Notes: generated by a model not told the origin, from the letters alone. DNA of 64,000 nucleotides from an uncultured Bacilli bacterium (GCA_934162665.1 CAKPJN010000007.1:2479-66478); one strand, 5' to 3'; positions 8,975 through 30,564 are shown, counted from the first letter of the stretch. Numbers and translations are program-made.

Positions 8975-9018
8975 TACATCGTCTCCTTCAAAATTCTCTT
9001 AAATAATTATGCATTTAA

Positions 9019-9632: not shown

Positions 9633-9696
9633 TTTTATTGTGTACAGAAATAAATATTTTATAACAAAAAAAATAAAAAAATATAATTAGCTAATA

Positions 9697-10889: not shown

Positions 10890-10925
10890 TTAATTATTCA
10901 AATAGTCAATGAAAGAATATATGAT

Positions 10926-11213: not shown

Positions 11214-11268
11214 TATATAATATGTAAAAAATTAATGATTTGGAACAAAAAAGAAAGATATAATCTTT

Positions 11269-11821: not shown

Positions 11822-11855
11822 TTTTATTATGATAACTTTCTATTTTTTTATACTA

Positions 11856-12299
11856 CTATAAAAACTTTTTTAAATCTTCTATTGTTTTCTCTTGAAATTT
11901 CATAAAATCTTTAGCAATCTTCAAATAATCTTTATTAACTTCATCATCATAATCTTTAATCTTTTTTTCCATATCTATAGATCCCATAGATATACCTTTA
12001 ATTAACATATCAGCAATAGAAGAATCACTATTATCTTTTTTGACTTCCTTATGAATCCCCATAGAAGACATCATTTTTGCGATAGTACCTTCTTCTTCCA
12101 AAGGTGAACCATTATTTTTAAGTTCATCCTTTGTTTTTGATACAAATTCTTCATATCTTTTTAAAATATCTTCTATCGTACTCTTTATTTTATTATCCTT
12201 TTCTTTTAAATCATTCAACAACTTAGTTAAATTATAAACAGCCATAGAACTATCTTTATAAATATGTTCTATCAATTCAATATTTTCATCCATGTTCAT
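11856..12299 (-). CDS. Hypothetical protein (147 aa, K/E/D-rich)
   Basis: ORF only. Confidence 0.35.
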   Translation of the reverse strand: MNMDENIELIEHIYKDSSMAVYNLTKLLNDLKEKDNKIKSTIEDILKRYEEFVSKTKDELKNNGSPLEEEGTIAKMMSSMGIHKEVKKDNSDSSIADMLIKGISMGSIDMEKKIKDYDDEVNKDYLKIAKDFMKFQEKTIEDLKKFL

Positions 12300-12347
12300 T
12301 CCTCCTATATTATAGTTTTAATAAAAAAAGCGAAATTATTCTCACAA

Positions 12348-13775: not shown

Positions 13776-13844
13776 CTATAGTAGTATGATACAATTTAAA
13801 GAAAAATATTTACATAATATTCTAAACCACTAATATATGACATA

Positions 13845-14120
13845 TTAATGAGATTTATTTTCCATTTTATAAGCTTTTTGAACTTCCTTAAAATATTTAA
13901 AATTTAAAAAAGTATATCCAATTTTTGCATTTGGACAATGCTTATATATATAATTAACAAGATTCTCTACTGTTTCTGCATTTTTAGCATAAATACTAAT
14001 TGTTATTTTTCCATTTTTTGTTACTAAAACAATTTCACGAGTAACTGTTATAAAGTGTTCATAAGTAAACTTTCTTTCATATATACAAATAATTTCTTCA
14101 AATGACGCAATATTTAGCAA
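13845..14120 (-). CDS. Hypothetical protein (91 aa)
   Basis: ORF only. Confidence 0.3.
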   Translation of the reverse strand: MLNIASFEEIICIYERKFTYEHFITVTREIVLVTKNGKITISIYAKNAETVENLVNYIYKHCPNAKIGYTFLNFKYFKEVQKAYKMENKSH

Positions 14121-14227
14121 ATTCTTTTTATTCGCAATAGTATTATTAGAACATATAATAAAATCATCTTCATATATAATGTTATTAAAAACTTAATCAG
14201 CTTGCCTTAATAAATCAGGATTACGTC

Positions 14228-14446
14228 TCAAAATATAGATTTTTTTATACCAAAATTCATAACACCAAATATCATAATTAATAAAGAAACGATAGTTGTT
14301 ACTGTTAAAAAAATCGCCATTCCAAATTCTTGCTCAAAAAAGCCATACAAAGCTAAAGGTACAGAACTAATAAACAATATAAATCCTAATACAAATATTA
14401 AAACCGCTCTTTTTCTAATTTGTTTAATTACTTTTTTACTTCCCAT
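14228..14446 (-). CDS. Small two-helix membrane protein
   Basis: ORF with two hydrophobic segments. Confidence 0.3.
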   Translation of the reverse strand: MGSKKVIKQIRKRAVLIFVLGFILFISSVPLALYGFFEQEFGMAIFLTVTTIVSLLIMIFGVMNFGIKKSIF

Positions 14447-14525
14447 GTAATAAACTCCAATCCCAAAAATTATAAATTAAAATAGATTGACAATTTTAAT
14501 CAATCCATTTCATCATTATATAAAT

Positions 14526-15146
14526 CTACTTATTAAAAACTAAATTTTGCCATTGAATATTAGATACTTCTCCATTTTCATTAAAAGTAAATTTATAGCT
14601 TCTATAAGTTTCTTCAGATTCATATCTATACACTTTTGCTATACTATCAGTAACCATAGAAGGTTCACCAAAAACTTCTTTTACTTTAGCTTCAGATGTA
14701 CCAAGTTTAATTCCTCCATAAACTTCAAAATCAGAAGCCTTAGAATCATTCTTTGCAGTAACATAGCTTAAATCTATACCACCAATAACTGCTTCAGAAA
14801 CCTTAATTGAAGAACCCTTTGTATTAAATGGTGTAACATCAAAGATATTTTTATTATCAGAATTAAGCATATGTCCTGCACCAATCATATACTTGTTAGC
14901 AGGTAATTCTTCATCTTTCTCACTTGCTCTTAAACTATAACCAACTTTTTCTAAAGCTGATATTTTATCTCCAGCATAGAATTTTTTACCATCAATAATA
15001 ATAAAATAAGACTTATTATTATCAATAAAGTTAACTTTTTCACTAGAACCTGTACCATTAGTACTCTCTTTAGAACCACATCCAGTCACTAAACTTAAAG
15101 TTAAAAAAGATACTGCTAAAATAGACATCAAAAATTTATTTTTCAT
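14526..15146 (-). CDS. Lipoprotein (lipobox LVTGC), function unknown
   Basis: Signal peptide plus lipobox; strong RBS AGGAGG upstream. Confidence 0.45.
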   Translation of the reverse strand: MKNKFLMSILAVSFLTLSLVTGCGSKESTNGTGSSEKVNFIDNNKSYFIIIDGKKFYAGDKISALEKVGYSLRASEKDEELPANKYMIGAGHMLNSDNKNIFDVTPFNTKGSSIKVSEAVIGGIDLSYVTAKNDSKASDFEVYGGIKLGTSEAKVKEVFGEPSMVTDSIAKVYRYESEETYRSYKFTFNENGEVSNIQWQNLVFNK

Positions 15147-15232
15147 ATTATTCCTCCTATTTCAGATTACATCAGAAACTAAAGAAATTCAATAATTAAT
15201 TATAGGTTAATAATATGCGCAAATAATTTATA

Positions 15233-16120
15233 TTATATAGATTTTAATATTCTGATAAAGTGATTAGCTTCCCTTAAAACATGATCAGCTAATAATGGAA
15301 TAATAATACTCTTAATTTTACAATTTAAAATTCCTTCTTCACCAGCAACTTTAAATTTTTGAAAATCCATTGTTTCTTTCAAGCTAGCATTTGTTAAAAG
15401 ACTCATATTATTACTATAATTATTAATAATATTTTCATAACTCTTAGCATATTGATCAGCGGTCATAATCAATTCTTTTTCAGTAGGATCTAATAAACCT
15501 CGAATAAATTCTGCATGTTCCTTCATAATAGTATTCCAGAATAATTCTTGTTCATATACATAGTTGGCACTAAATGTTTCTCCACTTTCCAGTTTATTTA
15601 ATAAACTTAAATACATTTTTGCCTCATTCATAATATGAGTAATCAGCAATGGATAATTTGCAGTATATAGCTTACAAGATAATACCTCATTTAAAATATT
15701 ATTTTTAAATGTAATTAAATTTTTAACTATTGGAATTGTTTGTCTATTAATTAATCTAATATTATTTACTAACTGCTGATTCATATTTAAGTTACCACTT
15801 CTTAAACTCGCTTCTTTTCTAGTTAAATTAGTATCAATTCTAATTCCTGATAAATTACTAGTTTGATCCTCAGCAGTTAAAGTATTTTTAGTAACAATTT
15901 CATTTGATGATAAAAATTCCCCACTAACATTCCCGTCAGCTAGGCTAATAACCTTATCTAAAATATTAGCAAAAGTTTTTTGAAAATTATTAGCTGTCAC
16001 TCTCAATTCATTATCCTTAAGCATAAAAGCAGCTTCTAAAAAGAAACTATGTTCTTTCATAATACGATCAAAAAACAAATGAAACTTTAAAGAAAGCCTT
16101 ACATATTCATTATAATTCAT
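15233..16120 (-). CDS. Hypothetical protein with duplicated ..IMKEH..F.. motif (DUF2935-like)
   Basis: Two internal repeats, FFDRIMKEHSFFLEAAF and FWNTIMKEHAEFIRGLLDP. Confidence 0.4.
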   Translation of the reverse strand: MNYNEYVRLSLKFHLFFDRIMKEHSFFLEAAFMLKDNELRVTANNFQKTFANILDKVISLADGNVSGEFLSSNEIVTKNTLTAEDQTSNLSGIRIDTNLTRKEASLRSGNLNMNQQLVNNIRLINRQTIPIVKNLITFKNNILNEVLSCKLYTANYPLLITHIMNEAKMYLSLLNKLESGETFSANYVYEQELFWNTIMKEHAEFIRGLLDPTEKELIMTADQYAKSYENIINNYSNNMSLLTNASLKETMDFQKFKVAGEEGILNCKIKSIIIPLLADHVLREANHFIRILKSI

Positions 16121-16612
16121 TATTCTCCTCCTATAATAAATATATATGTAAGGGGAAAAAATTTATTTATAATCAAATATAATTTTATAACATTATAGGT
16201 AAAACTTATATTTGAAATTCTCATTTGTTTTTATCATATTAATATTTATTTTTTCTTTTAAAATTTAAAATCTTATGCTTATATGACTCCTCTTGCATTT
16301 CATAATAATTATTATAAAACTATCTTGATATTCTTTTAATTCTTCTATATTTAAATCATTTGCCATCATTTTAATGAAATAACAAAAGATATCAGAAAAT
16401 TGAATCTGATATCTTCTATATTTTAATCCCAAATAAAAAGTTCGAGTTTGGTATCAATCTGGTGCCACAAAGGTTGTAGTACAACAACTTTTAAGACAAT
16501 AATTATAGGTAGTAATAAATTACTAACTGATATAAGTATAACACGATAACTATTTTAATGAAAGTCAATCTCAAAATATCGATTAAAAATTTGATATATG
16601 TTAAAATATATT

Positions 16613-16651
16613 TGACAGACAAATAGTAATTTAGTGTTAAAATAAATATTT
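16613..16651 (+). promoter_or_regulatory. Putative sigma-A promoter upstream of tetR-ABC operon
   Basis: TTGACA, 17 nt spacer, then TGTTAAAAT (an extended -10-like element), about 90 nt upstream of the ATG at 16744. Confidence 0.3.
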
Positions 16652-16743
16652 ATAAATAAAAGTTGTAAGATATATTTACAATTTTTATTTTTTATAATAT
16701 AATTACAAGCGTTATATAACTTATGTAATAAAGGAGTGATAAA

Positions 16744-17313
16744 ATGCCACCTAGAGTTAAAATAACAAAAGATGATGTAATAAATGCGACTTTAAATATT
16801 GTTAAAACAGAAGGAATTACTAATATATCCGCAAGAAGAATTGCTAAAGGACTTAAAAGTTCAGTTCAGCCAATATTTACTCATTTTGAATCAATGGAAG
16901 AACTAACAAATGTCGCAACTATGAAAATTTATGAACAATATAAAAATTCTATGATAGAGGCTTCAAAAAAAGAAAAATTACCATATAAAGCAATGGGGAT
17001 GGCATATATAAAATTTGCAAAATACTATCCTGAATATTTTAAAGTATTATTTATGCAAAAATCAGATAAAAGTGCGATGGATTTTATGCTATCTGATAAT
17101 ACTGGAAATAATGTTGTTGAAGTTGGAACAGAAATGTCAGGATTAAGTTTAGAAAAGCAGAAAGAATTTCATATAAAAGTATGGATGTTTACACACGGAA
17201 TTGCAAGTTTAATGGCAACTAAAACTATAGAAATGAGTGATAGTGAAATAGAAGATTTACTTGGAAACACGGTTCGAGAAATGTTAATAGGATTTAAAAA
17301 GGAGGAAATGTAA
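16744..17313 (+). CDS. TetR/AcrR family transcriptional regulator
   Basis: N-terminal HTH pattern ..ISARRIAKGLKSSVQPIFTHFESMEEL. Confidence 0.75.
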   Translation: MPPRVKITKDDVINATLNIVKTEGITNISARRIAKGLKSSVQPIFTHFESMEELTNVATMKIYEQYKNSMIEASKKEKLPYKAMGMAYIKFAKYYPEYFKVLFMQKSDKSAMDFMLSDNTGNNVVEVGTEMSGLSLEKQKEFHIKVWMFTHGIASLMATKTIEMSDSEIEDLLGNTVREMLIGFKKEEM

Positions 17314-18254
17314 TGTCTAAAAATGTTATAGAAGTTAAAAATTTAACAAAAGAATATAAAGAATTAAAAGCAATAGATAATTTATCTTTTGAAGTTAAAG
17401 AGGGAGAAATTTTAGGACTATTAGGTCCTAATGGAAGTGGAAAAACTACAACGATAAATTGTATTTTATCATTACTTAATTTTAAAAGTGGAAGTATTAA
17501 AATATTTGATAAAGAAATGAATCCTAATGCTTATGATATAAAAGCAAATATTGGTGTAGTATTTCAAGAAGTTGCAGTATTTGAAGAATTAACAGTAATA
17601 GATAATATTGATTATTTTTGTGGTTTATATATAAATGATAAAAATACTAGAAAAAAATATGTTGAAGAAGCAATAGAATTAGTTGGGTTAGAAAGTTTTA
17701 AAAAATTTTATCCAAAACAATTATCTGGAGGGCTTTTAAGAAGATTAAATATTGCTTCTGGTATAGCACACAAACCTAAATTAATATTTTTAGATGAGCC
17801 AACAGTTGCAGTAGATCCTCAAAGTAGAAATAATATTTTAGATGGTATAAAAAAGTTAAGAGAAAGTGGTGCAACCATTATATATACAACACATTATATG
17901 GAAGAAGTAGAAATACTATGTGATAGAATTATTATTTTAGATAAAGGTAAAATCCTAGTAAGTGGTACATCTGATGAATTAAAGAGCTTAGCAAATATAG
18001 AAGAAAAAATAACAGTAGAAATTATGGAATTAGATAAGAAATATATTGAAGAAATAAAAACTTTAAAGAATGTTGATGAAGTGATATATACTAATCAAAC
18101 ACTAATAGTTACATATAAAAAAGGCAAAAATAATCTAACTGATTTTATAGATTATTTAAAAAAAGAGAGTATTAAATATAATAAAATTTATTCTGAAAGA
18201 CCAACACTTAACGATGTATTTTTAGAATTAACTGGTAAGGAATTAAGAGATTAG
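17313..18254 (+). CDS. ABC transporter ATP-binding protein
   Basis: Walker A GPNGSGKTTT, signature LSGGLLRRL and Walker B IFLDEPT. The start overlaps the tetR stop. Confidence 0.85.
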   Translation: MSKNVIEVKNLTKEYKELKAIDNLSFEVKEGEILGLLGPNGSGKTTTINCILSLLNFKSGSIKIFDKEMNPNAYDIKANIGVVFQEVAVFEELTVIDNIDYFCGLYINDKNTRKKYVEEAIELVGLESFKKFYPKQLSGGLLRRLNIASGIAHKPKLIFLDEPTVAVDPQSRNNILDGIKKLRESGATIIYTTHYMEEVEILCDRIIILDKGKILVSGTSDELKSLANIEEKITVEIMELDKKYIEEIKTLKNVDEVIYTNQTLIVTYKKGKNNLTDFIDYLKKESIKYNKIYSERPTLNDVFLELTGKELRD

Positions 18255-18255
18255 T

Positions 18256-19434
18256 ATGTTTTGGCATAATTTTAAATATTCCTTAAAAACTCTCTTTAAA
18301 AATAAAATGCTAATATTTTGGACATTTGCCTTTCCAATAATATTAGGAACACTTTTTCAAATGGCTTTTTCAAATATAGAAAATAGTGAAAAATTTGAAG
18401 TGCTGGATGTAGCGATAGTAGAAACTGATGAATTTAATAATAACGAAATATATAAAGAATCATTTAAGGCTTTAAGTGATGAAAATAGTGATAGCAGGTT
18501 ATTTAATATAGAATATGTAACAGAAGATAAAGCAAAATCATTATTAGAAAGTAAGGAAATAGTGGGATACGTTCTAATTACTGATAAAGCAAAAGTGATA
18601 ATAAATTCTAGTGGTACTGATGAAACTATTTTAAAATATGCAGTAGATGAAATTACAAATCAGGAAAAAATTATAAATAATTTAGTAGAAATAGAAACTG
18701 GAAATGTATTACAAGAAAATAAAGTAAGTATAAATTATGAAGAAATTTATAAAAGTGCAATTTCTAAAATAGAAAATACAACATCAAATATTGAAGATAC
18801 ATCTAAATCTAACTTAAGTTATACAATGATAGAATTTTATACTTTGATAGCAATGGCTTGTTTGTATGGTGGAATATTTGGTATGGTATCTATTAACAAT
18901 TGTTTAGCAAATATGTCAAGCAAAGGAAAAAGAGTTGCTGTTAGTCCTACCAAAAAAGGAAAACTTATATTGAGTAGTGTTTTAGCAAGTTATATTACAC
19001 AGATAGTAGGACTATTACTATTATTTCTTTACACAATATTTGTTTTAAAAGTTGATTTTGGAAATAATTTATCAATGATTATATTACTTGCTTTAACTGG
19101 AAGTCTTGCAGGATTATCACTTGGCATATTTGTATCTACATTTATAAAAGCAAATGATAATGCTAAAACAGGAATTTTAATTGCATTTACAATGCTTTGC
19201 TGTTTCTTATCAGGAATGATGGGGATTACTATGAAATATGTAATTGATAAAAATATTCCTATTTTAAATAAGATAAATCCAGCAAATATGATTACAGATG
19301 GTTTTTATGCTTTATATTATAATGATACACTAGATAGATATTATTTTAATGTATTTAGTTTACTTGTATTTTCAGGAATTCTTATCTTACTTTCTATAAT
19401 AAGTTTAAGGAGGCAAAAATATGATAGTATTTAA
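18256..19434 (+). CDS. ABC-2 type transporter permease
   Basis: N-terminal TM, a large extracytoplasmic loop, then 5 C-terminal TMs. Adjacent to the ATPase. Confidence 0.6.
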   Translation: MFWHNFKYSLKTLFKNKMLIFWTFAFPIILGTLFQMAFSNIENSEKFEVLDVAIVETDEFNNNEIYKESFKALSDENSDSRLFNIEYVTEDKAKSLLESKEIVGYVLITDKAKVIINSSGTDETILKYAVDEITNQEKIINNLVEIETGNVLQENKVSINYEEIYKSAISKIENTTSNIEDTSKSNLSYTMIEFYTLIAMACLYGGIFGMVSINNCLANMSSKGKRVAVSPTKKGKLILSSVLASYITQIVGLLLLFLYTIFVLKVDFGNNLSMIILLALTGSLAGLSLGIFVSTFIKANDNAKTGILIAFTMLCCFLSGMMGITMKYVIDKNIPILNKINPANMITDGFYALYYNDTLDRYYFNVFSLLVFSGILILLSIISLRRQKYDSI

Positions 19435-20557
19435 AACATTTTTAAAAGTATTAAATAAGTGTAAAATGCCTGTTATAATGTTTACAATTATGCTTATCAT
19501 ATTCGGAGCATTTAGAACAACAACTAATGAAGATACTGGAAACTTTATAGAAACTAAGCCTGATATTGCTATAGTAAATAATGATGAAAACACAGGAATC
19601 ACAAAAGATTTTATAAATTACTTAAATGAAAATGCCAATGTTAAAGAAGTAGATAACCTAGATGATGCTTTATTTTATAGAGATGTAAGTTATATTGTAT
19701 ATATTCCAGATAATTTTAGAGATGACTTCTTAAATGGTAAAAATCCTAAAATAGAAGTAAAAAGTACAGGAGATTATGAATCAAATTTAGCAGAAATGAT
19801 AATTGATAGATATATTAAAGTAGCAAATATCTATGTAAGCGAAAATCTTTCAGAAGATGAAGTCATCAGAAATATAAATGATACTTTAAATGATAAAACA
19901 GAAGTAGAAATAACATCAAAATTAGATGAAACAGGTATTTCAAAATTAGTCTTTTTCTATAATTTTGCTAATTATTCTCTTTTAGCAGGAGGAATATATG
20001 TTGCATGTTTGATTCTTTCTAGTTTTAAAGAAGAAAAAATTAGAAAAAGAACAATAATTAGTAGTATGAATGATAAGAAATTTAATAGGCAACTATTACT
20101 ATCAAATAGTTCGTTTATGATTTGTTTATGGGCATTTTACTCTTTACTAGGTATAGTTCTTTTGGGAGATATAATGTTTACAAAGCAAGGATTAATTTGT
20201 GTTATAAACTCATTTATATTCAGTATGTGCTGTTTAACGATAGCATTTCTAATAGGAAATATAAGCAGTAATAAAAATGCTATAAATGGAATTATAAATG
20301 TAATTGCACTAGGTTCAAGTTTCTTATGTGGTGCATTTGTTCCAATGGAATGGTTACCAAAATCTATATTATCACTTGCTCATATTCTACCATCATATTA
20401 CTATATTAAAACAAATGAATTATTAAAAGAAATAGAAATATTTAATATAGATACTTTAAAACCTATTATTTTGAATATGATAGTTATAGTGATATTTAGT
20501 GTAATATTTGTTGTAATTACAAATGTTATTTCAAACAAAAATAAAAAGATAGATTAG
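19421..20557 (+). CDS. ABC-2 type transporter permease (second subunit)
   Basis: Same topology as the preceding permease and overlaps it by 14 nt. Confidence 0.6.
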   Translation: MIVFKTFLKVLNKCKMPVIMFTIMLIIFGAFRTTTNEDTGNFIETKPDIAIVNNDENTGITKDFINYLNENANVKEVDNLDDALFYRDVSYIVYIPDNFRDDFLNGKNPKIEVKSTGDYESNLAEMIIDRYIKVANIYVSENLSEDEVIRNINDTLNDKTEVEITSKLDETGISKLVFFYNFANYSLLAGGIYVACLILSSFKEEKIRKRTIISSMNDKKFNRQLLLSNSSFMICLWAFYSLLGIVLLGDIMFTKQGLICVINSFIFSMCCLTIAFLIGNISSNKNAINGIINVIALGSSFLCGAFVPMEWLPKSILSLAHILPSYYYIKTNELLKEIEIFNIDTLKPIILNMIVIVIFSVIFVVITNVISNKNKKID

Positions 20558-20618
20558 TAGTTTAAAAAGTTATAAGTTGTTGTTAGATAAATTACAATTA
20601 ATCGAGCAGATTATAAAA

Positions 20619-20658
20619 GGAATATGAATCTATAAAACTCATATTCCTTTTTCTTTTG
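20619..20658 (+). terminator. Rho-independent terminator of ABC operon
   Basis: Perfect 9-bp inverted repeat GGAATATGA/TCATATTCC around an 11-nt loop, followed by TTTTTCTTTT. It overlaps the stop codon of the convergent RHH gene. Confidence 0.6.
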
Positions 20659-20791
20659 AATCTAACATTTTGATGTAACCCATTTCTAATAACTGAACCA
20701 TCATTTTAGTAGTTGATATACCATAGAACTTTGCCATTAATTTTATTCTATCATATAGTTCTATTGGCAGATAAAAATTAAATCTATGCAT
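20639..20791 (-). CDS. Ribbon-helix-helix (CopG/Arc-type) DNA-binding protein, 50 aa
   Basis: Not in the ORF track (below 60 aa). Strong RBS AGGAGG 8 nt upstream of the ATG. Translation MHRFNFYLPIELYDRIKLMAKFYGISTTKMMVQLLEMGYIKMLDSKEKGI carries the classic RFNFYLP RHH beta-strand. Confidence 0.6.
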   Translation of the reverse strand: MHRFNFYLPIELYDRIKLMAKFYGISTTKMMVQLLEMGYIKMLDSKEKGI

Positions 20792-20820
20792 TATATTTGA
20801 CCTCCTTTATTTATTTTATT

Positions 20821-21070
20821 TAGGATGAAAATAACTAAAACTCTCGTGAAATATGAAACAGCAGGATAAGAAACTTGTGCATCATACCTTATCAATCCCT
20901 TATAAAATAAGGAATTAGGTATGTGCAAGTCTTATTTCGTACTTACGAAATTCATCCTACTTTGTAGGTTGATATAAAGGTTAATCCCTTTTTTATTTCT
21001 TATATTTAGGGACTTTATTGTTTTAGATTTTCATCCTAAATGCTAATTTTTAGTGATTTTTGTAGGATGA
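20821..21070. repeat. Cluster of TAGGATGA / TCATCCTA octamer motifs including a palindromic full site
   Basis: TAGGATGA at 20821-28 and 21063-70; its reverse complement TCATCCTA at 20952-59 and 21031-38. The palindrome TCATCCTA-CTTTG-TAGGTTGA lies at 20952-20972. Confidence 0.5.
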
Positions 21071-22258
21071 TTATGTTTTTTGAGATTCTAATTCATTTTT
21101 GAATTTTTCTTTTAAGTCTTTAAAGATTTTACTATATGTTTCATTACTAATATTTGGAATATTACTTAAATCTAGTGTAATAACTCCTAATTTTAAATTT
21201 TGATTTTTAAACCCTTTATCTGGCTTTATAGAAATTAATCGTATTATTTTTTCTAGATTAATATTAGATGAATATTTTATATCTTTTAAATCATCATCAG
21301 TATCTATTTCATAGTAATTAAATTTATATTCGTTTAATGTACTACATAACTTATCAAAATAATTTTTAACTTCTTCTTTACTTTTTACTTCATGGTTCAT
21401 ATTAAGATAACAACCATATTCATCTTTAAATAATCTTAAGTTAAAAGGTACACTATAATTATTATGGTTATCTATTAAATCTTTCAAATAGGAACTTCTA
21501 AATTCTCCATTTATGATATTGATTTTATTATTCGTTTTTAGAGTGGTTAAGTTATCAATATATTTAGCAATTATTCTTTGTTTTTCCTGTTTTTCTAAAC
21601 CATCCCATTTATAAAAATCTTTTAAGTAGTTGTCGGGTTTGGTAAACATTTCTATTTCTTGCTTATCTTCTAGTATTAGCAAATCATCTAAAGTAAAACT
21701 TAAAATTTCATATTGTTTTTGTTCTTTTTGTTTATTTAATAGTTCTTCTCTTTTAAAATCAATATGTTTTATTTCTTTATTAAAATCAATTTCACTATTA
21801 TCTAATTCAGATTTTATAAATTGTGTATAGTAATCATTTAATAGGTTATCTTGTCTTAATAATTCATTAAATAGTAAGATTAAACTTTCTTCTATATCTT
21901 TTTCAGTATAATATGCTTTACAACCTTTACATTTGTAATAATAGTATTTCTTGCCACTAGGTTTTGTACTAGCACATCCACCTAAGAAACAACCACATTT
22001 AGAACATTTAAGTTTATTAATAAATAGATATGTTGCAGTTCTTTCATAGTGCCTAGCATTTTTTTTTGCTTGTATTTGGCAAGAATCCCATTTTTCTTTA
22101 GATACAATAGGCTCTATAACATTTTCATAGTAAGTTGGATGCTTTGTTCTTTTGCCATGAATAAAATCGCCTTTATAAAGTTGATTTGCTAGTATTTTTT
22201 GTATTGTAGAATCATACCAATTTGTTTTATCTAATAATTTTTCTTCGTTAATGATGTC
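21071..22258 (-). pseudogene. Large serine recombinase, 5'-truncated (lacks N-terminal catalytic resolvase domain)
   Basis: Manual translation shows one continuous frame, with no stop from 22276 down to 21071. It contains the recombinase-domain pattern (WYDSTIQKILANQLYKGDFIHGKRTK..PIVSKEKWDSCQ) and the zinc-ribbon pattern (LKCSKCGCFLGGC...YYYYKCKGC) of large serine recombinases, followed by a coiled-coil tail. No resolvase catalytic domain exists upstream, because the frame runs into the antisense of the integrase fragment. Confidence 0.6.
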
Positions 22259-22262
22259 AGAA

Positions 22263-22391
22263 AATAAAGAATTATATCAAATAAGTAAAAAAATTGGCCA
22301 TAGTGACTACTCTACAACAGTTAATAAATATGGCCACTTATCAAATCAAATTAAAAGAGAAATTGCGGAAATTACAGATAAATATATTTAA
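22263..22391 (+). pseudogene. Tyrosine recombinase/integrase C-terminal fragment (about 42 aa including catalytic Tyr box)
   Basis: The plus frame translates NKELYQISKKIGHSDYSTTVNKYGHLSNQIKREIAEITDKYI*, matching the ..LGHS.I.TT..YTHV.. C-terminal box of phage-type integrases. No integrase sequence lies upstream; that region encodes the serine recombinase on the other strand. Confidence 0.5.
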
Positions 22392-22458
22392 AATGGGAGT
22401 AATTTAAAGAGTAAAAATAATAAAAACCGTTACAGTATAACGATTTGAAAACACAAAA

Positions 22459-22493
22459 TGGTGCCAGTAAGGAGCAGGTCTAACAACTCCTAG
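22459..22493 (-). repeat. tRNA/tmRNA 3'-end-like fragment (T-arm + CCA), putative att remnant
   Basis: Minus-strand reading CTAGGAGTTGTTAGACCTGCTCCTTACTGGCACCA has an AGGAG/CTCCT stem and terminal CACCA. It resembles the tmRNA 3' end at 26105-26136 (GGACAGGAGTTCGATTCTCCTCAGCTCCACCA). Confidence 0.3.
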
Positions 22494-22942
22494 ACAAAAA
22501 GATGATAGTAAGTAATACTTACTAACTAATTACATTATACACATTAGCAAAACAAAAAGAAAGTATTTTATTCTACTTTCTTATTTTCTTTAGTATCGGT
22601 CCTTTTTCTTCATGAATTGCTTAATATAGTTTTTCTCTAGCAATTGATGATTGTGGATTTCTCATTTCTTTTATATTTTCTAAAGCATCTAACAATATTT
22701 TTTCTTTTTTTGAAGCGTTTTCTAATTATACTTTATCAATTGACAGATCAACATACAGATAATTATTCTTTATTGATGTTTTCTATATTTACTTTTATAC
22801 TTTTGGAAATGCCATATCCTAAATTAACAACGATTGAACTTACAAATAATATTCCAAAAAGAATTATGTCTTTTGTTAATAATATAGTAGCAACTGAAAT
22901 TACTCCTCACCAACTAATCTATTTATTGTATTTCTAATAATT

Positions 22943-23320
22943 TTATCTTCTTTTCATTAATTTTAAAGTTTTTGTTTGCTCTTCTAATTTATCAATTTTA
23001 CTATCAATAATTTTTTCTGCTATCTTATATCCTATACTATTTTCATTTAATTTCTCAACTATATATTTAAACTCATTAGGAGCTATATCTAAAAATGTTC
23101 TTAATGCTATTTCAAGTACATACAACTTTTTATCTTCATCGATATCGTAATGTCCGACACCTGTTTTTATAGTCTCAAAAATTTCACCATATCTTATATA
23201 AATAATAGTTTTTTCTTGAAATGTACCTCTTATATCAGATTGTTGCTCTATAATAATAAAATTAGTACCGATTACATCATCATACTCGTCTTTAATATCA
23301 TTATGACTTATATCTGCCAT
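22943..23320 (-). CDS. Hypothetical protein (125 aa), island cargo
   Basis: ORF with no recognisable motif. Confidence 0.4.
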   Translation of the reverse strand: MADISHNDIKDEYDDVIGTNFIIIEQQSDIRGTFQEKTIIYIRYGEIFETIKTGVGHYDIDEDKKLYVLEIALRTFLDIAPNEFKYIVEKLNENSIGYKIAEKIIDSKIDKLEEQTKTLKLMKRR

Positions 23321-23380
23321 TTTTTCATCTCCTTTTTGTAATTGTTTATTATAACATAACTTAATATATATGTGTATATA

Positions 23381-23890
23381 TTAAAAATCCTCATATATTG
23401 TTCTTTCAATTTTCTTTACTTTTACTAAATCAGGTCCAATTTCAATATTCTTTTTACATTGTTCCATATAATATCTGCATAATGGTTTACTCCAATTATA
23501 ATATTTTAAAAATAAATCTGAATAACCATAAACAATATTATTAGCAATACCAATTAATTTTTTCTTATCTTCTAATAATTTTTTTTGTGTTTCTAATTTT
23601 TCTTCTTTGGTATCATTTCTATATGATTTTTGAGCAATTTTAATAAAATAGTATTCTCTAATTAGATTATCTAATGTCATATATTCTTCTTTAGTATATT
23701 TATTATCAGTAATTTCTACTCCCCAACCACATAATTCATTATTAGAAGAATCAAATCCACATGTCATGGAAACATTAAATCCCACTACAAAGCCTCCCCT
23801 CAAATAGTAAAAAATTATACCATATTTTCCCACTTTTATAGCATTTTTATAATCATTATTTATTTTCGATAAAAACTCTATTGTTTTCAT
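23381..23890 (-). CDS. Hypothetical protein (169 aa), island cargo
   Basis: ORF whose start overlaps the end of the KilA-N gene by 35 nt. No recognisable motif. Confidence 0.4.
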   Translation of the reverse strand: MKTIEFLSKINNDYKNAIKVGKYGIIFYYLRGGFVVGFNVSMTCGFDSSNNELCGWGVEITDNKYTKEEYMTLDNLIREYYFIKIAQKSYRNDTKEEKLETQKKLLEDKKKLIGIANNIVYGYSDLFLKYYNWSKPLCRYYMEQCKKNIEIGPDLVKVKKIERTIYEDF

Positions 23891-24776
23891 TTATTCTTTC
23901 TTGTAGTAATTCTAATTCTTTAATACCTTTATTATTTTTTAATATTTCCATTTGGTTTCTAGCAGAATTATTCAAACTAATCAATCTTTCACTCTGTGAC
24001 ATACCTAGTTTTATAAACTCTGCATTTGTATTTTCTAAATTATTTAATATTACTAAATGTAATAAATCAGTATAATCTCTCATATTACCATTTTTTGCTA
24101 ATTTAGGATTATTTTCTCTCCATTCTTTAGCAGTCATTCCAAATAATGCAACATTTAATACATCAGCTTCTTCAGCATATACAAATCTTTTTTGTTCTTC
24201 TGTTAGTGTAGGAACTATATAATTTTTAACTGCATCTGTATGAACCACATAATTTAATTTAGATAATAATCTATTAGCGTGCCATTCAATTTTTTGTTGA
24301 TACATTTCATTACTTTTTAATCTTTCAAATTCTTTTATTAAATAAAGTTTAAATTCAGGACTTAACCAACTGGCAAATTCAAATGCAATATCAGGATGAG
24401 CAAATGTTCCACCATCATATCTTCCAGATTTTGAAACAATTCCAATTGCATTAGTTTCTTTAATCCATTTTTGTGGGGACATTTTAAATTTATTACTGCC
24501 TGCTTCATTTTTAAAGGTAGCGAATTCGCCCCCTTTAAAATTTTTATTATTCATACTTTCCCATAGTCCTAAATAAGAAATAACTTCTTTATTTCTCATC
24601 CAATCTCTAATTGGAAGTCTTGGTTCTTCTGCATCAGCATATCTCGCTAAATCAGTAAGTGATATATAATCTACATCTCCAATTCTCATTATTCCTATTT
24701 TATTATCTATAACATTTATTTCAGTTTTTACTAAATCTTTTGACATATTTTTGCTCCTTTCTAAATAGTTAGACAA
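23856..24776 (-). CDS. KilA-N domain protein with C-terminal coiled-coil
   Basis: GRYDGGTFAHPDIAFEFASWLSPEFKLYL matches the KilA-N/APSES core. Confidence 0.6.
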   Translation of the reverse strand: MSNYLERSKNMSKDLVKTEINVIDNKIGIMRIGDVDYISLTDLARYADAEEPRLPIRDWMRNKEVISYLGLWESMNNKNFKGGEFATFKNEAGSNKFKMSPQKWIKETNAIGIVSKSGRYDGGTFAHPDIAFEFASWLSPEFKLYLIKEFERLKSNEMYQQKIEWHANRLLSKLNYVVHTDAVKNYIVPTLTEEQKRFVYAEEADVLNVALFGMTAKEWRENNPKLAKNGNMRDYTDLLHLVILNNLENTNAEFIKLGMSQSERLISLNNSARNQMEILKNNKGIKELELLQERINENNRVFIENK

Positions 24777-24831
24777 ATCTGACTAATTGTCTTCCTATAT
24801 CAATTTTACCATAAAATTTAGTTGATTATCT

Positions 24832-26091
24832 TTATAATTCAATATCATCATCTTTTTTCTTATTTTCTTTATATTTTTTACTAATAGGTAAATCATATAT
24901 TTTCTTATATTCTTTTTCAGTTATTATATTACTTTCTCTTAAATCATCTGTAATATCCTTATATTTACTTTTTAATATATTACCAAATAATCCTTTAACT
25001 CTTTCAGATATAAAATCTACAATTTCATTAACTCTTTGCTTCCAAGATTCTACTTTTGCTTCAAGTTCAATTATTTTTTTATTTAATGTATTTATTGTAT
25101 TTTTTGAAACCATTAACAATCTTTCTTTTTCTTCTAATTTAACTTTTAAATCTTCATTATCATTTGTTAAATTTCTAATAGTATTATGATTATCTTCTAA
25201 ATCTTTTTTTATATTTTCAAGTGATAAATTATAATTATTAATACTTTTAAAGTTTTTATTATTCTTATCAATATCATTTATATACTCTAATAATTTATCT
25301 TTTTTATCATTAGAAATAATTAAGTTGTTGTTTGATAAAGGTTGTTGTTTTAAACTTTCTAATATTTCTTTAACTTCGTTTGATTTCACATTTATCTTAT
25401 CTACATTTTTATTTATTTCAGTTATTTTCTTATGTTGTTTTTTATAATCATTTTTCAACTTATCATAATTTTTCATTTGTCCAACACGATAATCTTGATT
25501 GCTTCCTTGTTCTTTTTCTTTTAATTTAGCATTCAAGCCATAAACTTTATTAAAATCATTTATACAAGATTCTCTAAGTTTATCTTGAATAATTTTTAAT
25601 AATTCTATTGTAAATACATCAGATTTTCCTACTTGTTTATTCATACCTGTTTTACAATTTTCTTTTACTGGAACACCAACTATATGCAAGTGTAGAGAGT
25701 ATTCATCAAAATGGCAAGTCGCATTTGCTACATAGAAGTCTGGAACTATTTCTTTTAAATCTTTAATTAATATCTTATTACTTAAATTTTCAATATAGAT
25801 ATTTGTTTCATAATTAAATGCAAGAAATGTAATACCTTTAATAATTATTCTATGTGGCTCTACATAAGATAAGTTTGTTCTTTCTATTGTTCTAATTGAA
25901 CCTTTTTGTATTTCACATTTAGTATTGCAGAAACTACATACAAATTCTAGTTTCTTTCTTAATGCTTCTTCAATATCAATTTCTTGCTTAATAATATTTA
26001 CCATTAAATCATCCCTTTCTTTTAAACACAACAAAAAATCAATTCCATTTCTAGAATTGATATTTATTAGTAAAGTTGAACTAATGTTCAA
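24832..26091 (-). CDS. MobV-family relaxase / plasmid recombination enzyme (Mob_Pre) with coiled-coil C-terminus
   Basis: HxDE..HxH motif CHFDEYSLHLHIVGVP sits at residues 127-136, the position of MobM motif III. Followed by a long K/E/N-rich coiled-coil. The start codon is TTG 13 bp from the tmRNA 3' end. Confidence 0.6.
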   Translation of the reverse strand: MNISSTLLININSRNGIDFLLCLKERDDLMVNIIKQEIDIEEALRKKLEFVCSFCNTKCEIQKGSIRTIERTNLSYVEPHRIIIKGITFLAFNYETNIYIENLSNKILIKDLKEIVPDFYVANATCHFDEYSLHLHIVGVPVKENCKTGMNKQVGKSDVFTIELLKIIQDKLRESCINDFNKVYGLNAKLKEKEQGSNQDYRVGQMKNYDKLKNDYKKQHKKITEINKNVDKINVKSNEVKEILESLKQQPLSNNNLIISNDKKDKLLEYINDIDKNNKNFKSINNYNLSLENIKKDLEDNHNTIRNLTNDNEDLKVKLEEKERLLMVSKNTINTLNKKIIELEAKVESWKQRVNEIVDFISERVKGLFGNILKSKYKDITDDLRESNIITEKEYKKIYDLPISKKYKENKKKDDDIEL

Positions 26092-26104
26092 CCAGATTCT
26101 TTAA

Positions 26105-26445
26105 TGGTGGAGCTGAGGAGAATCGAACTCCTGTCCGAAAATAAAGCTACATAAACTTCTACAAGTTTAGTTAACTAATTAAATTCATCTAATTATAAAG
26201 TAGTTAACACCCAGATAATTAGACTAGACTATTAATTTCATTTTAGCTATAGTCATAACTAAAACATAATCTGTTAAAAATTGAACCTCCATATATCTAG
26301 CAGATAAGATATATTTCAGTGCATCCCATTAAATTAAGCGAATGCTAATTGATTTCTGTTTCCAGTTATTTTTAATTTGCTTTAACGTAATGCGTACGAC
26401 TTGCCATTTATGCTCTAATATTCCCGTCGAAACCAAGTCAGCCCC
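26105..26445 (-). ncRNA. ssrA: tmRNA (ssrA)
   Basis: 5' GGGGCTGACTTGGTTTCGACGGG and 3' GGACAGGAGTTCGATTCTCCTCAGCTCCACCA tRNA-like ends. Internal tag frame ..AGC AAA TTA AAA ATA ACT GGA AAC AGA AAT CAA TTA GCA TTC GCT TAA (..NQLAFA*). smpB lies immediately upstream. Confidence 0.8.
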
Positions 26446-26794: not shown

Positions 26795-27232
26795 CTAATA
26801 CTTTTTTAAAGTTTTCAACGCTTCCCTTTTAATATCTCTTTCCTTTATACTCTCTCTTTTATCATATTCTTTTTTACCACGACAAATTCCTAATTGCACC
26901 TTTAACCTATTATCCTTAAAATAAAGCTTTATAGGGATAATAGTATACCCTTTAATATCAATTGCATCTTTTATCTTCAAGATTTCTTTTTTATGAAGCA
27001 ATAACTTTCTAGTCCTAGTTTCATCATGATTAAAAATATTTCCTTCTTTATATTCACCAACATACATATTTAGTAAATATATTTCGTTGTTCTTTATAAT
27101 ACCATAACAATCCTTTATATTGCAACTACCATTTCGAATAGATTTAATTTCTGTTCCAGTAAGTACAATACCAGCTTCATAAGTATCTTCAATAAAATAA
27201 TCATGCTTAGCTTTTCTATTTAAGATTTCCAT
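26795..27232 (-). CDS. smpB: SsrA-binding protein SmpB
   Basis: Conserved SmpB sequence (GIVLTGTEIKSIR...RTRKLLLHKKEI). Confidence 0.9.
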   Translation of the reverse strand: MEILNRKAKHDYFIEDTYEAGIVLTGTEIKSIRNGSCNIKDCYGIIKNNEIYLLNMYVGEYKEGNIFNHDETRTRKLLLHKKEILKIKDAIDIKGYTIIPIKLYFKDNRLKVQLGICRGKKEYDKRESIKERDIKREALKTLKKY

Positions 27233-28434: not shown

Positions 28435-30564
28435 CTATACTACCTTCCTAACAATCTCAAAATCTATAGTCTTTTCCTCTTTAGAAGCTCTAACAACTTT
28501 AATAACAACCCTCTCACCAATAGTATACTTAATATGAGTTTTCTCACCTGTTAAAGTCATATGTTCTTCATCATAATGGAAAAAGTCTTTCATATCACGT
28601 AATGGAACTAATCCTTCTATTAAATTATCTAATTCTATAAACATTCCAAAACTAGTTACAGAAGAAATCATTCCTTCAAATTCTTCACCAATATGCCCTT
28701 CCATATACTCAGCCATCTTCATATCTTCAACTTCTCGCTCGCAATCAACACTAGCTCTTTCTCGAGCAGATGAATGATCAGCAATATATACTAACTTTTC
28801 TTCCCACTTACGAACAGTTCCTGGATTCAAATCCTTATTAAATAAATATGTTCTTAAAAGACGATGAACAGTAGTATCTGGATAACGTCTAATTGGAGAA
28901 GTAAAATGTGTATAACATTTACTCGCAAGGCCATAATGTCCTAAATTTTCAGGTTTATAAACAGCTTTCTGCATACTTCTAAGTAATAAACTAGAAAGAA
29001 TTTTAAATTCTTTTTTATCTTCCAAAAATTTAAGTAATTTTTGTATAGTTTGAGGTCTTGTATCTTTAATATCTCCAGGTATCTGATAACCTAAACTTCC
29101 AATAAAACCTAAATAACTTCTAATTTTTTCTTCCTTTGGCACCTCATGAATACGATAAATAAATGGTAAATTCATAAAGTAAATATGAGAAGCAACACAC
29201 TCATTAGCCGCAATCATAAAGTCCTCAATAAGCATTTCACCTGCTCCACGTTCCCTTAAAACAACTTCCGTAGGCCTACATTTCTCATCCACTAAAATTT
29301 TAGCTTCATCTACTTCAAAATCTATATATCCTCTTTTTTCCTTCATTTTTCTAAGTATCTTAGCTAATTCTCCCATAGTAGTCAAACTTTTAACATATTC
29401 TTCATATCCTTCAGGAATAACATTTTTTTCTAAAATACTATTAACTTTTTTATAAGTCATCTGAATACGTGATCTAATAACACTAGGAAATATTTCATAA
29501 TCTAATTGATTTCCCAAATTATCAAATTCCATAATACAAGAAATAGCTAAACGATCAACATTAGGATTCAAAGAACAAATACCATTAGATAACTCATGAG
29601 GAATCATTGGTATAACTCTATCTACTAAATAAACACTAGTCCCTCTTTCCATAGCTTCATTATCTAGTGGACTTCCCTCTTTTACATAATAACTAACATC
29701 AGCAATATGAACACCCAATTTATAATGACCATTATTAAGTCTTTCAATAGAAATTGCATCATCAATATCTTTTGTATCATCGCCATCAATAGTAAATATT
29801 TCTACATCTCTTAAATCACGTCTATCTTTTAATTCAGCTTCTGATACAGAATTAGGTATATCTTTAACTTCTTCTTTTACATCATCGGGAAATTCAGTAT
29901 TAATATTATACTTATAAACAATCGATAAAATATCAACCCCTGGATCATTTTTATGTCCAATTACTTCAACAACAACACCCTCATATTTAGTATTAGTAAT
30001 CTTTTTACCAAGTTCAATAACAACCTTATGTCCATCAACAGCATTTAAACTGTTTTCTTTAGATACAATAACTTCTATTTTTACCTTCGAATCATCCAAT
30101 TTTACATGACCCACATTTTTAATAAAATTAATTTCCCCTACATATCTATTAACTTGTCGTTTTAAAATTCTTAAAATTCTACCTTCTAGTCTATCTAAAT
30201 TCATTTTACTAGTAATTTCAACAAGTACTATATCATCATGTATTGCCCCATTAATATTATCCTGAGAAATATATATATCATCATCTAATCCTTCAACTTC
30301 AACAAAACCAAAACCCTTTTTATTAACATGCATTATTCCTTTTTTTAAGTGACTCTTTTCAAGCATCATATATTTATCTTTATTAGAATGATAAACTACT
30401 ACATCTTCTTCTAAAGCTCTAAGTGCTTGACTTAAATTACGAACCTCATCAACAGTTTTTAGGCCTAATTTATCCTGAATATCATAAATACTAAGTGCCT
30501 TATCACTACTTTGTAATATATCAATTATATTGTCTCTCATATTCTTCATAGTATCACCTTCCAA
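28435..30564 (-). CDS. rnr: Ribonuclease R
   Basis: RNB catalytic-domain motifs (IDGDDTKDIDDAIS) and a C-terminal S1 domain, in the smpB-rnr arrangement. Confidence 0.85.
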   Translation of the reverse strand: MEGDTMKNMRDNIIDILQSSDKALSIYDIQDKLGLKTVDEVRNLSQALRALEEDVVVYHSNKDKYMMLEKSHLKKGIMHVNKKGFGFVEVEGLDDDIYISQDNINGAIHDDIVLVEITSKMNLDRLEGRILRILKRQVNRYVGEINFIKNVGHVKLDDSKVKIEVIVSKENSLNAVDGHKVVIELGKKITNTKYEGVVVEVIGHKNDPGVDILSIVYKYNINTEFPDDVKEEVKDIPNSVSEAELKDRRDLRDVEIFTIDGDDTKDIDDAISIERLNNGHYKLGVHIADVSYYVKEGSPLDNEAMERGTSVYLVDRVIPMIPHELSNGICSLNPNVDRLAISCIMEFDNLGNQLDYEIFPSVIRSRIQMTYKKVNSILEKNVIPEGYEEYVKSLTTMGELAKILRKMKEKRGYIDFEVDEAKILVDEKCRPTEVVLRERGAGEMLIEDFMIAANECVASHIYFMNLPFIYRIHEVPKEEKIRSYLGFIGSLGYQIPGDIKDTRPQTIQKLLKFLEDKKEFKILSSLLLRSMQKAVYKPENLGHYGLASKCYTHFTSPIRRYPDTTVHRLLRTYLFNKDLNPGTVRKWEEKLVYIADHSSARERASVDCEREVEDMKMAEYMEGHIGEEFEGMISSVTSFGMFIELDNLIEGLVPLRDMKDFFHYDEEHMTLTGEKTHIKYTIGERVVIKVVRASKEEKTIDFEIVRKVV

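Follow-up and report, generated by a model that had tools for sequence, protein, structure and literature searches.

What occupies the DNA directly beyond the 3' end of the transfer-messenger RNA (tmRNA) gene, ssrA, in an uncultured gut bacterium, and how far does it reach? The question was raised by a stretch of 64,000 nucleotides from an uncultured Bacilli bacterium (GCA_934162665.1, CAKPJN010000007.1:2479-66478; hereafter the window, with positions counted from its first letter). An annotation made from the sequence alone (the sequence-only reading) had described positions 20619-26104 as a composite, decayed array of mobile elements inserted at the tmRNA 3' end, with no intact recombinase left. 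Comparison with intact relatives (loci L063, L095, L105, L109 and L110) confirmed that such an array exists, and open reading frame (ORF) and Pfam/PHROG profile scans detected no intact recombinase in its region. The extent had to be revised: judged by these relatives, the array of relics is 16460-26104, 9.6 kb and not 5.5 kb. We consider it probable (about 0.8) that three or more elements integrated one after another at the 3' end of ssrA, forming this region by tandem accretion, and that all of them have been disabled by deletions. Its main parts are as follows.

26105-26445, minus strand: ssrA (tmRNA) gene, complete, with encoded CCA (ARAGORN and Rfam RF00023)
22459-26104, no strand assigned: unit A (comparison with intact relatives)
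22251-22391, plus strand: last 46 codons of a tyrosine recombinase (...GHSDYSTTVNKYGH...; phrog_7685, 4.5e-7; phrog_1, 0.002)
16460-22251, no strand assigned: unit B (comparison with L105 and L095)

The smpB-ssrA neighbourhoods of 80 related species (L001-L080), fetched via SmpB, served as the comparison set; L numbers denote fetched loci or contigs, and P numbers denote homologous proteins that were compared. Proteins were scanned against Pfam, PHROG, NCBIfam, PADLOC and PDB, and RNAs with Rfam and ARAGORN. The window DNA is low in G+C (about 25%), and its SmpB is most similar (83% identity) to that of 'Mycoplasma sp. CAG:877' and of many 'Bacilli bacterium' metagenome-assembled genomes. The tmRNA gene has a covariance score of 151.2 bits (gathering threshold 47; model positions 1-374), a tag frame encoding GNRNQLAFA according to ARAGORN, and tRNA-like ends with CCA. 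Its end, 26105-26109, reads CACCA on the minus strand, and this is the core common to all junctions. The genes for SmpB (26795-27232) and RNase R (28435-30564) lie upstream, and a tRNA-Thr gene of the same orientation (9280-9355) lies 16.7 kb downstream. At 341 nt, the window tmRNA is shorter than that of most relatives (376-385 nt), and in the Rfam alignment its pseudoknot regions are shortened. In L061 a tRNA-Thr gene (10868-10947) begins 5 nt past the tmRNA gene.

The intact relatives allow the parts of the array to be recognized. In L063, the tmRNA gene is followed by a 93-aa ORF, a 627-aa recombinase with Resolvase, Recombinase and zinc-ribbon domains, a 458-aa MobV relaxase with an HxxR-type motif and the sequence HFDESSPHLH, three cargo genes, and a short conserved piece. 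In L095, the tmRNA 3' end is followed by a near arm, a 94-aa small gene, an intact 634-aa serine recombinase and, 280 nt downstream of it, a gene for a ribbon-helix-helix (RHH) protein. In L105, a tRNA gene is followed by a near arm, a 91-aa gene, a 621-aa recombinase and an RHH gene, then by a convergent MacB-type ATP-binding cassette (ABC) exporter with a TetR gene, and by a far arm. Further relatives whose intact anatomy was read are L109/L110 and L117-L124. The layout that we propose for an intact element of this family comprises a CCA-ending tRNA or tmRNA gene, a near arm bearing a terminator, a gene of ~90 aa, a large serine recombinase of ~620-645 aa, either MobV with a candidate origin of transfer (oriT; A-type) or an RHH gene (B-type), variable cargo, and a far arm of ~110 nt ending ...GGCACCA. 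The N-terminal domain of the family recombinase matched, among PDB entries, the TnpX catalytic domain (2mhc, 2.7e-6) and the TP901-1 integrase (5.9e-19).

One 6.7-kb element, 99.9% identical at two loci (7373-14080 in both), follows the tmRNA gene in L109 and a tRNA-Arg gene in L110; it encodes the small gene, the recombinase, MobV, a major facilitator superfamily (MFS) transporter, an amidotransferase and a nucleotidase, and in both contigs a second, different element of the family comes next. Identity between L109 and L110 begins directly past the common CACCA. Close relatives sit after tRNA-Phe (L102), tRNA-Thr (L124) and a tRNA with a long variable arm (L105). Since the far arm of L105 ends in CGCCA and its tRNA in CACCA, the exchange can be placed, from these sequences, in or just after the CCA. 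The sequence-only reading had named the same genes without tmRNA linkage as an observation that would speak against it; relatives at tRNA-Arg, tRNA-Phe and tRNA-Thr are such a case, and they show mobility rather than refuting the array. The picture of a classical tyrosine-integrase tmRNA island with a duplicated 3' end gave way to one of serine-recombinase elements that cross over at the CCA end. The recombinase would recombine the attP site of the element with a tRNA-type gene at its CCA end; this gene would remain intact, with a new terminator brought by the element, and the far arm, a look-alike of the T-arm and acceptor 3' strand, would land beside the former flank of the RNA gene.

Unit A, which directly adjoins ssrA, consists of the following features, listed together with a hairpin that lies past its core.

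26005-26104, minus strand: unit A near arm, of the 'type 2 P-prime' kind, TTAAAGAATCTGGTTGAAC... (junction alignment)
24832-26004, minus strand: chimeric ORF of 390 aa, 390 codons open (homologue mapping and comparison with L063)
23856-24746, minus strand: cargo gene for a KilA-N domain protein (Pfam KilA-N, 2.8e-20; phrog_2657, 2.6e-52)
23381-23785, minus strand: cargo gene for a 134-aa protein, no family match (the mechanical ORF reaches 23890)
22943-23320, minus strand: cargo gene for a 125-aa protein, no family match
22459-22567, minus strand: far-end attachment region ('P arm', attR), ending ...AGGAGTTGTTAGACCTGCTCCTTACTGGCACCA (match to the far end of L063)
22420-22445, minus strand: intrinsic-terminator-like hairpin directly past the unit A core (read from sequence)

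The near arm contains two hairpins, 26075-26092 and 26038-26061, the latter with a T run, which would terminate tmRNA transcripts; the same type 2 arm follows the tmRNA gene in L027, L019, L032 and many more relatives. The far arm resembles the T-arm and acceptor 3' strand of the tmRNA and includes the piece at 22459-22493 that had been taken for a tRNA-3'-end-like repeat splitting the array. The piece is real and does divide two units: the window has a single copy of the 33-mer at 22459-22491 (0 expected, 100 shuffles), L063 has an exact copy, and L102 and L109 have exact or nearly exact ones. Over the final 71 nt before ...GGCACCA, identity to L063 17502-17572, the far end of an intact element, is 97%; over the wider 171 nt it is 82%. 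The same arm stands at the far end of an intact element in L063, L102, L109 and L113, and the DNA past its CACCA differs in every host: in some it is a terminator, in others the next element begins there with its near end. The arm and the tmRNA 3' end have the T-stem (AGGAG...CTCCT) and CACCA in common, which by count amounts to 13 matches in the last 19 positions; a direct repeat of the tmRNA 3' end extending past CACCA was not found. The piece is thus not a duplicated tmRNA end, and 22459-22567 behaves, as far as its sequence tells, like the P side of attR, the far attachment arm, in an element with a serine recombinase.

The stretches 22459-22567 and 16460-16633 (the corresponding arm of unit B) could instead be small tRNA-like RNA genes, each a minihelix with an ACCA end and its own promoter and terminator, serving as integration targets or having an RNA function. 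A conserved TGnTATAAT/TATACT box ~8 nt upstream of the conserved block, two hairpins predicted in each variant, the ACCA end followed by a terminator, and conservation over the 71 nt (97%) above that of neighbouring DNA (82-86%) are all in keeping with such genes. However, there was no Rfam match at E <= 1, ARAGORN reported nothing there, the alignment fold reached -0.16 kcal/mol with 0 compensatory pairs, single-sequence folds were no better than shuffles (z -0.07 to -1.86), and the register of the second hairpin differs in each variant. Moreover, the piece always lies at the far end of an element with unrelated DNA after CACCA, exactly as expected of an element end. RNA genes at these places are therefore very improbable, and the arms were rejected as such.

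An extended -10-like box (TGnTATAAT / TGTTATACT) is present at window positions 22530-22545 and 16530-16545, ~8 nt before a conserved AGTTAGTAA block. It recurs at the matching far-arm positions of L063, L102, L105 and L118, oriented outward across the att core. In a circular form the box would face the small gene and the recombinase, and we presume it to be comparable to the joint promoter of Tn4451.

The large ORF of unit A had been annotated as a MobV relaxase. It falls below every family threshold: no Pfam match to Mob_Pre was obtained at E < 0.1 (the intact L063 protein scores 52.3 bits against a threshold of 25.5), and the NCBIfam MobV model NF041497 gave 21.8 bits (cut-off 100) over residues 93-148 only. 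Residues 1 to ~84 correspond to the small att-proximal gene (orf90 family), followed in frame by the C-terminal ~300 aa of a MobV relaxase. In L063, L036 and L027, two genes correspond to this ORF: the small gene immediately following the tmRNA matches the first ~84 residues, and a second gene, 2.7 kb further along, matches residues ~81-375; the serine recombinase lies between them. The best homologues are PF01076 proteins of 457-459 aa that cover only the C-terminal 75-82% of the query, and the closest full-length PF01076 homologues have no counterpart of its first ~20%. Because its parts are separate genes in relatives and its homologues cover the C part only, we conclude that the ORF is most simply read as an in-frame fusion produced by a deletion that would have eliminated the entire recombinase and the spacer, together with the end of the small gene on one side and the first ~150-165 relaxase codons on the other. 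The junction falls at a short microhomology of ~9 nt (GAnTTAnAA; ...KDLKEIVPDF...). The remnant lacks the N-terminal ~150-165 aa of the relaxase, including the HxxR of motif I, whose region is replaced by the orf90-type N-terminus, and its motif III reads HFDEYSLHLH (Pro to Leu), compared with HFDESSPHLH in all close intact homologues.

By lineage, the N part is a 'type 2' small gene, with 61% identity to its counterpart in the second unit of L102, and the C part is 81-87% identical to MobV of type 1 elements (L063, L102-L104). Since the N part is of type 2 and the C part and far arm are of the L063/L102 type 1, unit A itself is probably a deletion product spanning two neighbouring elements. 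Also absent from the window is the conserved inverted-repeat spacer between the recombinase and mobV of intact elements. We take this spacer, by analogy with pMV158-type MobV systems, to be a likely oriT. The long inverted repeat that it contains in L063 (13380-13450), and also in L109, L102 and L110, reads CTCCCATATCTTGA...TCAAGATATCTAGGGAG and has CTAAGG-n-CCTTAG before it.

Several relatives show tandem arrays and comparable products of deletion. The second unit of L102 has a 248-aa relaxase tail behind an intact small gene; recombinase::relaxase fusions occur in L019, in P0065 and in a 573-aa protein of L109; and P0047/L101 is a diverged protein with the same junction as the window ORF, in a unit of 3.1 kb that likewise has a far arm at its end. 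The last case raises the possibility that the chimeric ORF is kept as a gene by a non-autonomous lineage, built of near arm, fusion gene, cargo and far arm, that spreads with recombinases borrowed from its relatives. P0047 keeps the junction (LKDLERLVPSF versus IKDLKEIVPDF in the window) even though identity is 75% in the N part, 59% in the relaxase remnant and 38% in the coiled coil; both ORFs are intact, and the P0047 cluster comprises 75 member sequences. We nevertheless regard a maintained gene as unlikely. The window copy has lost conserved relaxase residues (besides the motif III change, PSFK has become PDFY), its C part is far closer to intact relaxases than to P0047, which suggests an independent or recombined origin, other deletion derivatives (L102 unit 2, L019/P0065, P0091) have different junctions, and no function is known for a relaxase without motif I.

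The three other genes of unit A are cargo. The KilA-N gene noticed from the sequence was confirmed by the profile matches above, and its product matched PADLOC family PDC-S22 over most of the model (3.5e-120, 398 bits, profile positions 5-275 of 281). PDC-S22 is a candidate defence family only, and a literature search returned no functional study of it. The search of defence databases that had been recommended for the cargo thus succeeded with one gene and failed with two, which indeed lack an assigned function: the 134-aa and 125-aa proteins matched nothing in Pfam, PHROG, NCBIfam, PADLOC or PDB. The former has only 8 representatives among 1.84 billion proteins, some of which are the C-terminal domain of ~250-aa proteins, and the latter has ten homologues among 5.8 billion clusters. 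Joint occurrence of the two was seen once, in the mobile-looking contig L125, where homologues of both genes (84% and 73% nucleotide identity) lie 1.8 kb apart at 2026-4651. That contig also has many small ORFs of no assigned function and, at its end, a helix-turn-helix gene and a 594-aa serine recombinase. The gene surroundings of the homologues gave no hint of what the two proteins do. No homologue was found for the non-coding DNA at 22568-22942.

The revised extent of the array depends on unit B, whose features are given below together with the flank beyond it.

21071-22246, minus strand: large serine recombinase pseudogene, frame open for 391 codons (Pfam, PHROG and nucleotide alignment)
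20639-20791, minus strand: 50-aa probable RHH protein (weak profile matches)
20587-20655, no strand assigned: end of the recombinase-RHH block, with a bidirectional terminator hairpin at 20619-20655 (read from sequence)
16744-20557, plus strand: unit B cargo, encoding a TetR regulator, an ABC ATPase and a pair of ABC-2 permeases, in convergent orientation to the RHH gene (position between conserved blocks)
16460-16633, minus strand: unit B far-end attachment region, a second P arm, ...AAAAGTTGTTGTACTACAACCTTTGTGGCACCA (88% to L105 6939-7141)
16382-16459, minus strand: flank past the last core, GATTGATACCAAACTCGAAC and a terminator hairpin at 16382-16419 (terminator scan)

The recombinase had been recognized as truncated, and this proved correct. 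It matched Pfam Recombinase (PF07508) partially (2.5e-9, profile positions 37-101 only) and phrog_95 (1.7e-31); what remains of the large serine recombinase domains is the second half of PF07508 and a weak zinc ribbon, and PF00239 (the Resolvase domain) is absent, whereas intact relatives possess all three domains. The gene lacks the N-terminal ~210 aa, that is, the catalytic domain, and carries an internal in-frame 84-nt deletion. It is 92-94% identical in nucleotide sequence to the intact 621-634-aa genes of L095 and L105, and the alignment ends at 22251; the homologue P0121 (621 aa) has both PF00239 and PF07508. The proposed RHH regulator is probable: its 50-aa sequence has a visible beta-strand and two-helix pattern, and in B-type elements the gene always lies 280 nt downstream of the recombinase (an identical protein in L095 and a 50-aa gene in L105 at the same spacing), but the profile matches are weak (RHH_5, 16.1 bits against a cut-off of 26, E = 0.009, below threshold; phrog_795, 6.5e-4).

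Homology to the recombinase-RHH block stops at 20589 with L095 and at 20587 with L105, where the cargo begins to the left, 30 nt from the ABC stop codon. Beyond the operon lies the arm at 16460 (...CCTTTGTGGCACCA), which shares its conserved blocks with the one at 22459 and is 63% identical to it over 108 nt. The window and L105 match in three blocks, 20587-21788 (93.8%), 21767-22251 (92.2%) and 16431-16633 (88.2%); between them, the window has its TetR-ABC-2 operon where L105 has the MacB-type exporter and TetR, so the slot is the same and the transporter types differ. Since the operon lies between the recombinase-RHH block and a second P arm, as in L105, it would be cargo of unit B rather than chromosomal flank, and the array would reach 16460. 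An inverted GC skew over 16.5-20.5 kb fits the operon being cargo, as do the absence of these ABC permease genes within 10 kb of smpB/ssrA in all 80 relatives (0/80) and the placement of window genes 6802-13775, which in relatives lie within 3-10 kb of ssrA; nothing from 13845-26104 was found there.

These results bear on the boundaries first proposed, namely a 5.5-kb decayed island between a chromosomal ABC operon and ssrA, with the internal piece as a duplicated tmRNA 3' end. Every gene relic listed for that island exists, the tyrosine-integrase stub does adjoin the internal piece, and ssrA is a well-known integration hotspot (PMC3146451). Yet a second far arm, 88% identical to the far end of the ABC- and TetR-bearing L105, lies beyond the operon, the recombinase-RHH-terminator block ends just short of it, these permeases are missing near ssrA in the relatives, and the internal piece has only CACCA and scattered positions in common with the tmRNA end. 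We therefore consider the narrower island improbable. The empty site that it predicted, with the ABC operon directly beside ssrA, was looked for in the 80 relatives and none was found; it cannot exist if, as we conclude, the operon is cargo.

An island extending down to the tRNA-Thr gene at 9280 was rejected, genes 6802-13775 being syntenic with ssrA in relatives. Between these genes and the array, 13845-16120 contains four genes, whose products are a protein of 91 aa, a membrane protein of 72 aa, a lipoprotein of 206 aa and a DUF2935 protein of 295 aa. The four have no orthologue near ssrA in the 80 relatives and no mobile-element marks, and are either older cargo or species-specific chromosome.

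Between units A and B lies the tyrosine-integrase fragment, correctly identified from the sequence. Its PHROG matches fall at the C-terminal ends of the profiles, and of the R-K-H-R-H/W-Y catalytic domain only the last 46 residues, with the box II His and Tyr region, are left. Head to head with the unit B recombinase at 22251, the stub reads in the direction of the tmRNA gene; beyond its 3' end come the terminator and the core of unit A. No relative of it was present among the fetched loci. The stub is a relic of a third, different element (T), and the hairpin at 22420-22445, which resembles the short tmRNA flanks of L055 and L023, is flank DNA of this earlier occupant.

The array had also been called fixed. 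At least 12 contigs of the same species from several cohorts, each spanning all or part of it, are collinear at 99.6-100% identity. The ABC permease or the RHH protein of the window was found in more than 20 contigs (20 and 23 contigs were read, respectively), and in exact-protein look-ups with both, the species showed this arrangement only; L095, from another organism, was also found. To this extent the array is invariant. On the other hand, unit A keeps both attachment sites, and one same-species contig, L083, differs at the core: it is identical to window 16727-26109 and departs right after TGGTG. In place of the tmRNA body, L083 (9379-10271) has a different T-arm-like arm (GGGTTCGGTATCTACCCACTCAAGGCACCA, tmRNA-sense strand) and a gene for a 169-aa membrane protein. 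Because window identity stops at 26109 and a new arm follows, something else appears to have recombined exactly at the att core in that strain; this reflects either relocation of the array or a further element that separates ssrA from unit A.

Five short Logan contigs from independent runs (L084, L085, L086, L088 and L090) all end at 20959, which is 168 nt beyond the RHH start codon and inside a spacer 94-97% identical to elements of other species. This common end is probably best explained by assembly-graph branching on shared mobile DNA.

Tandem accretion would account for the array as follows. Each newcomer inserts at the CCA end and displaces older units outward. Unit B, with its TetR-regulated ABC exporter, would have arrived first, element T next, and unit A, with the KilA-N candidate defence gene, last. 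One deletion would then have joined the integrase stub of T head to head to the truncated recombinase of unit B, and another, at the ~9-nt microhomology, would have fused the small gene of unit A to the middle of the relaxase, taking away the recombinase, the candidate oriT and the catalytic N-terminus of the relaxase.

Compared with an integrative and mobilizable element (IME), the array has flanking attachment sites at a specific target (the near arm at the tmRNA CCA and the far arms at 22459-22567 and 16460-16633). It has no recombinase of its own beyond the truncated serine recombinase and the 46-codon stub, whereas L063, L095, L105, L109 and L110 have theirs, and no relaxase or oriT of its own, the relaxase remnant being without HxxR and the candidate oriT spacer being absent. 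The array thus presumably cannot move on its own. Unit A agrees by sequence with the definition of a cis-mobilizable element (CIME), in which integration and transfer genes are lost and attL and attR are kept; because both of its attachment sites are retained, it could be moved in trans. Unit B has no near arm and does not qualify as a CIME.

Several points weigh against this account. Neither the protein look-ups nor a metagenome junction scan revealed an empty site or an excision junction in this species, and because of this, mobility here is inferred from relatives only. The metagenome scan for a hypothetical junction of the tmRNA end with the flank at 16459 returned other organisms only: the 20-mer GATTGATACCAAACTCGAAC also follows tmRNA (L106) or tRNA-Phe (L107/L108) elsewhere, and the flank motif past 16460 is not species-specific. 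The flank 16382-16459 resembles 'type 1' near-end arms, and similar motifs follow most tmRNA genes of the clade; it is either the tmRNA flank from before insertion or the near arm of an older, vanished element. As to a third serine-recombinase unit left of 16460, only the 20 nt and the terminator resemble a near arm, and nothing else matches. The arrival order and the two deletion events are reconstructions. For large serine integrases, the canonical rule forbids recombination of attP with attL. The arrays seem to imply insertion beside a resident near arm, contrary to this rule; either near arms may double as attB-type half-sites, or directionality rules may differ here. The 390-codon and 391-codon ORFs stay open in a genome of 25% GC, and P0047 (50% identical) shares the fusion junction, so that the fusion could be a maintained gene and not debris. 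Finally, the IME label is unjustified for B-type elements, because they have no relaxase.

Most tmRNA flanks of L001-L080 carry one of two recurrent types (GATTGATAGGAAACTCGAAC... or TTGACGAATCTGTTCGAAC...), even where no recombinase is nearby. Relics of the element family appear to be nearly universal at ssrA in this clade. In L112 (11154-12331), an IS110-family transposase pair takes the place of the cargo of an L109-type element, and in L117 (4178-9153), an island with a tyrosine integrase, a tRNA-Leu gene and an OLD-family nuclease (AAA_21 and TOPRIM) stands directly before another element of the family.

A broader reading joins these observations, and we hold it tentatively, at somewhat less than even odds. 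The relics would derive from a widespread family of small elements of uncultured gut Bacilli (RF39-like), of which we found no description. Its large serine recombinase would insert exactly at the encoded CCA of many tRNA-type genes (tmRNA and tRNA-Arg for one element; tRNA-Phe, tRNA-Thr and probably tRNA-Leu for close relatives), with an attP arm that imitates the T-arm and acceptor 3' strand. The elements would stack beside residents in spite of the attP x attL rule, and would repeatedly lose the recombinase by deletions that can leave in-frame fusions of the small gene to a relaxase tail, which may persist in non-autonomous elements.

For annotation, the consequence is that ~9.6 kb beside ssrA has been acquired, with a TetR-regulated ABC exporter and a candidate anti-phage gene as part of it, and that the 'relaxase' and 'recombinase' genes of the array are, to judge from their sequences, dead. 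Decay and tandem accretion are a textbook structure and the array is an ordinary genome scar; novelty rests in the properties of the family. The comparison exposes an active element family in poorly known uncultured gut Bacilli that carries exporters, metabolic genes and candidate defence genes between species. A serine recombinase aimed at the CCA end of many tRNA-type genes would, if true, be relevant to integrase specificity and directionality. Serine integrases require no host factors, and such an enzyme could for this reason serve as a tool.

Among known systems, Tn4451/Tn4453 of Clostridium perfringens and C. difficile resemble the family in being small mobilizable elements of low-GC Firmicutes that pair a large serine recombinase (TnpX) with a MobV (Mob/Pre) relaxase (TnpZ). 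Tn4451 uses many target sites that resemble the ends of the element, around a GA dinucleotide, and is not tied to tRNA-type genes. The small att-proximal gene, the arm that looks like a tRNA end and the CCA-end target, in contrast, belong to the family described here. The Tn4451 relaxase has been assigned to MobV (PMC5704250). More generally, the scheme proposed for IMEs, in which integration is followed by decay to a CIME and by new integration at the same target (Guedon et al. 2017, PMC5704250), matches what was observed: intact relatives have a site-specific recombinase, MobV with a candidate oriT, variable cargo and no mating-pore genes, and tandem arrays form by repeated integration at the same target, with older units losing integration and transfer genes and keeping att sites. 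The streptococcal tRNA-inserted example of that work differs in using tyrosine integrases, whereas here the recombinase is a large serine recombinase and no target duplication extends past CACCA; B-type units further differ from IMEs in having an RHH gene and no relaxase.

In Dehalococcoides, serine-recombinase elements lie in tandem downstream of the single-copy tmRNA gene (McMurdie et al. 2011, PMC3146451). As here, the integration module is beside attL, and some units have no recombinase and are considered cis-mobilizable or fixed. Those islands, however, use the CcrB-like DsiB with a second small recombinase, DsiA, and insert at the T-loop with a 20-bp repeat, while the present family crosses over at the CCA end, has a single recombinase, and uses ordinary tRNA genes too (tRNA-Arg in L110). 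Classical tyrosine-integrase islands and prophages at ssrA share the hotspot, and the stub at 22251-22391, with its 3' end toward the RNA gene, fits their int-att layout; but a mere stub is left here, and both units that can be reconstructed are serine-recombinase elements. A limited check of the literature yielded no description of the element family. Set beside these systems, three features appear, on sequence grounds, to be particular to this family: crossover at the CCA end, an arm that looks like a tRNA end, and the ability of one element to use many tRNA-type genes.

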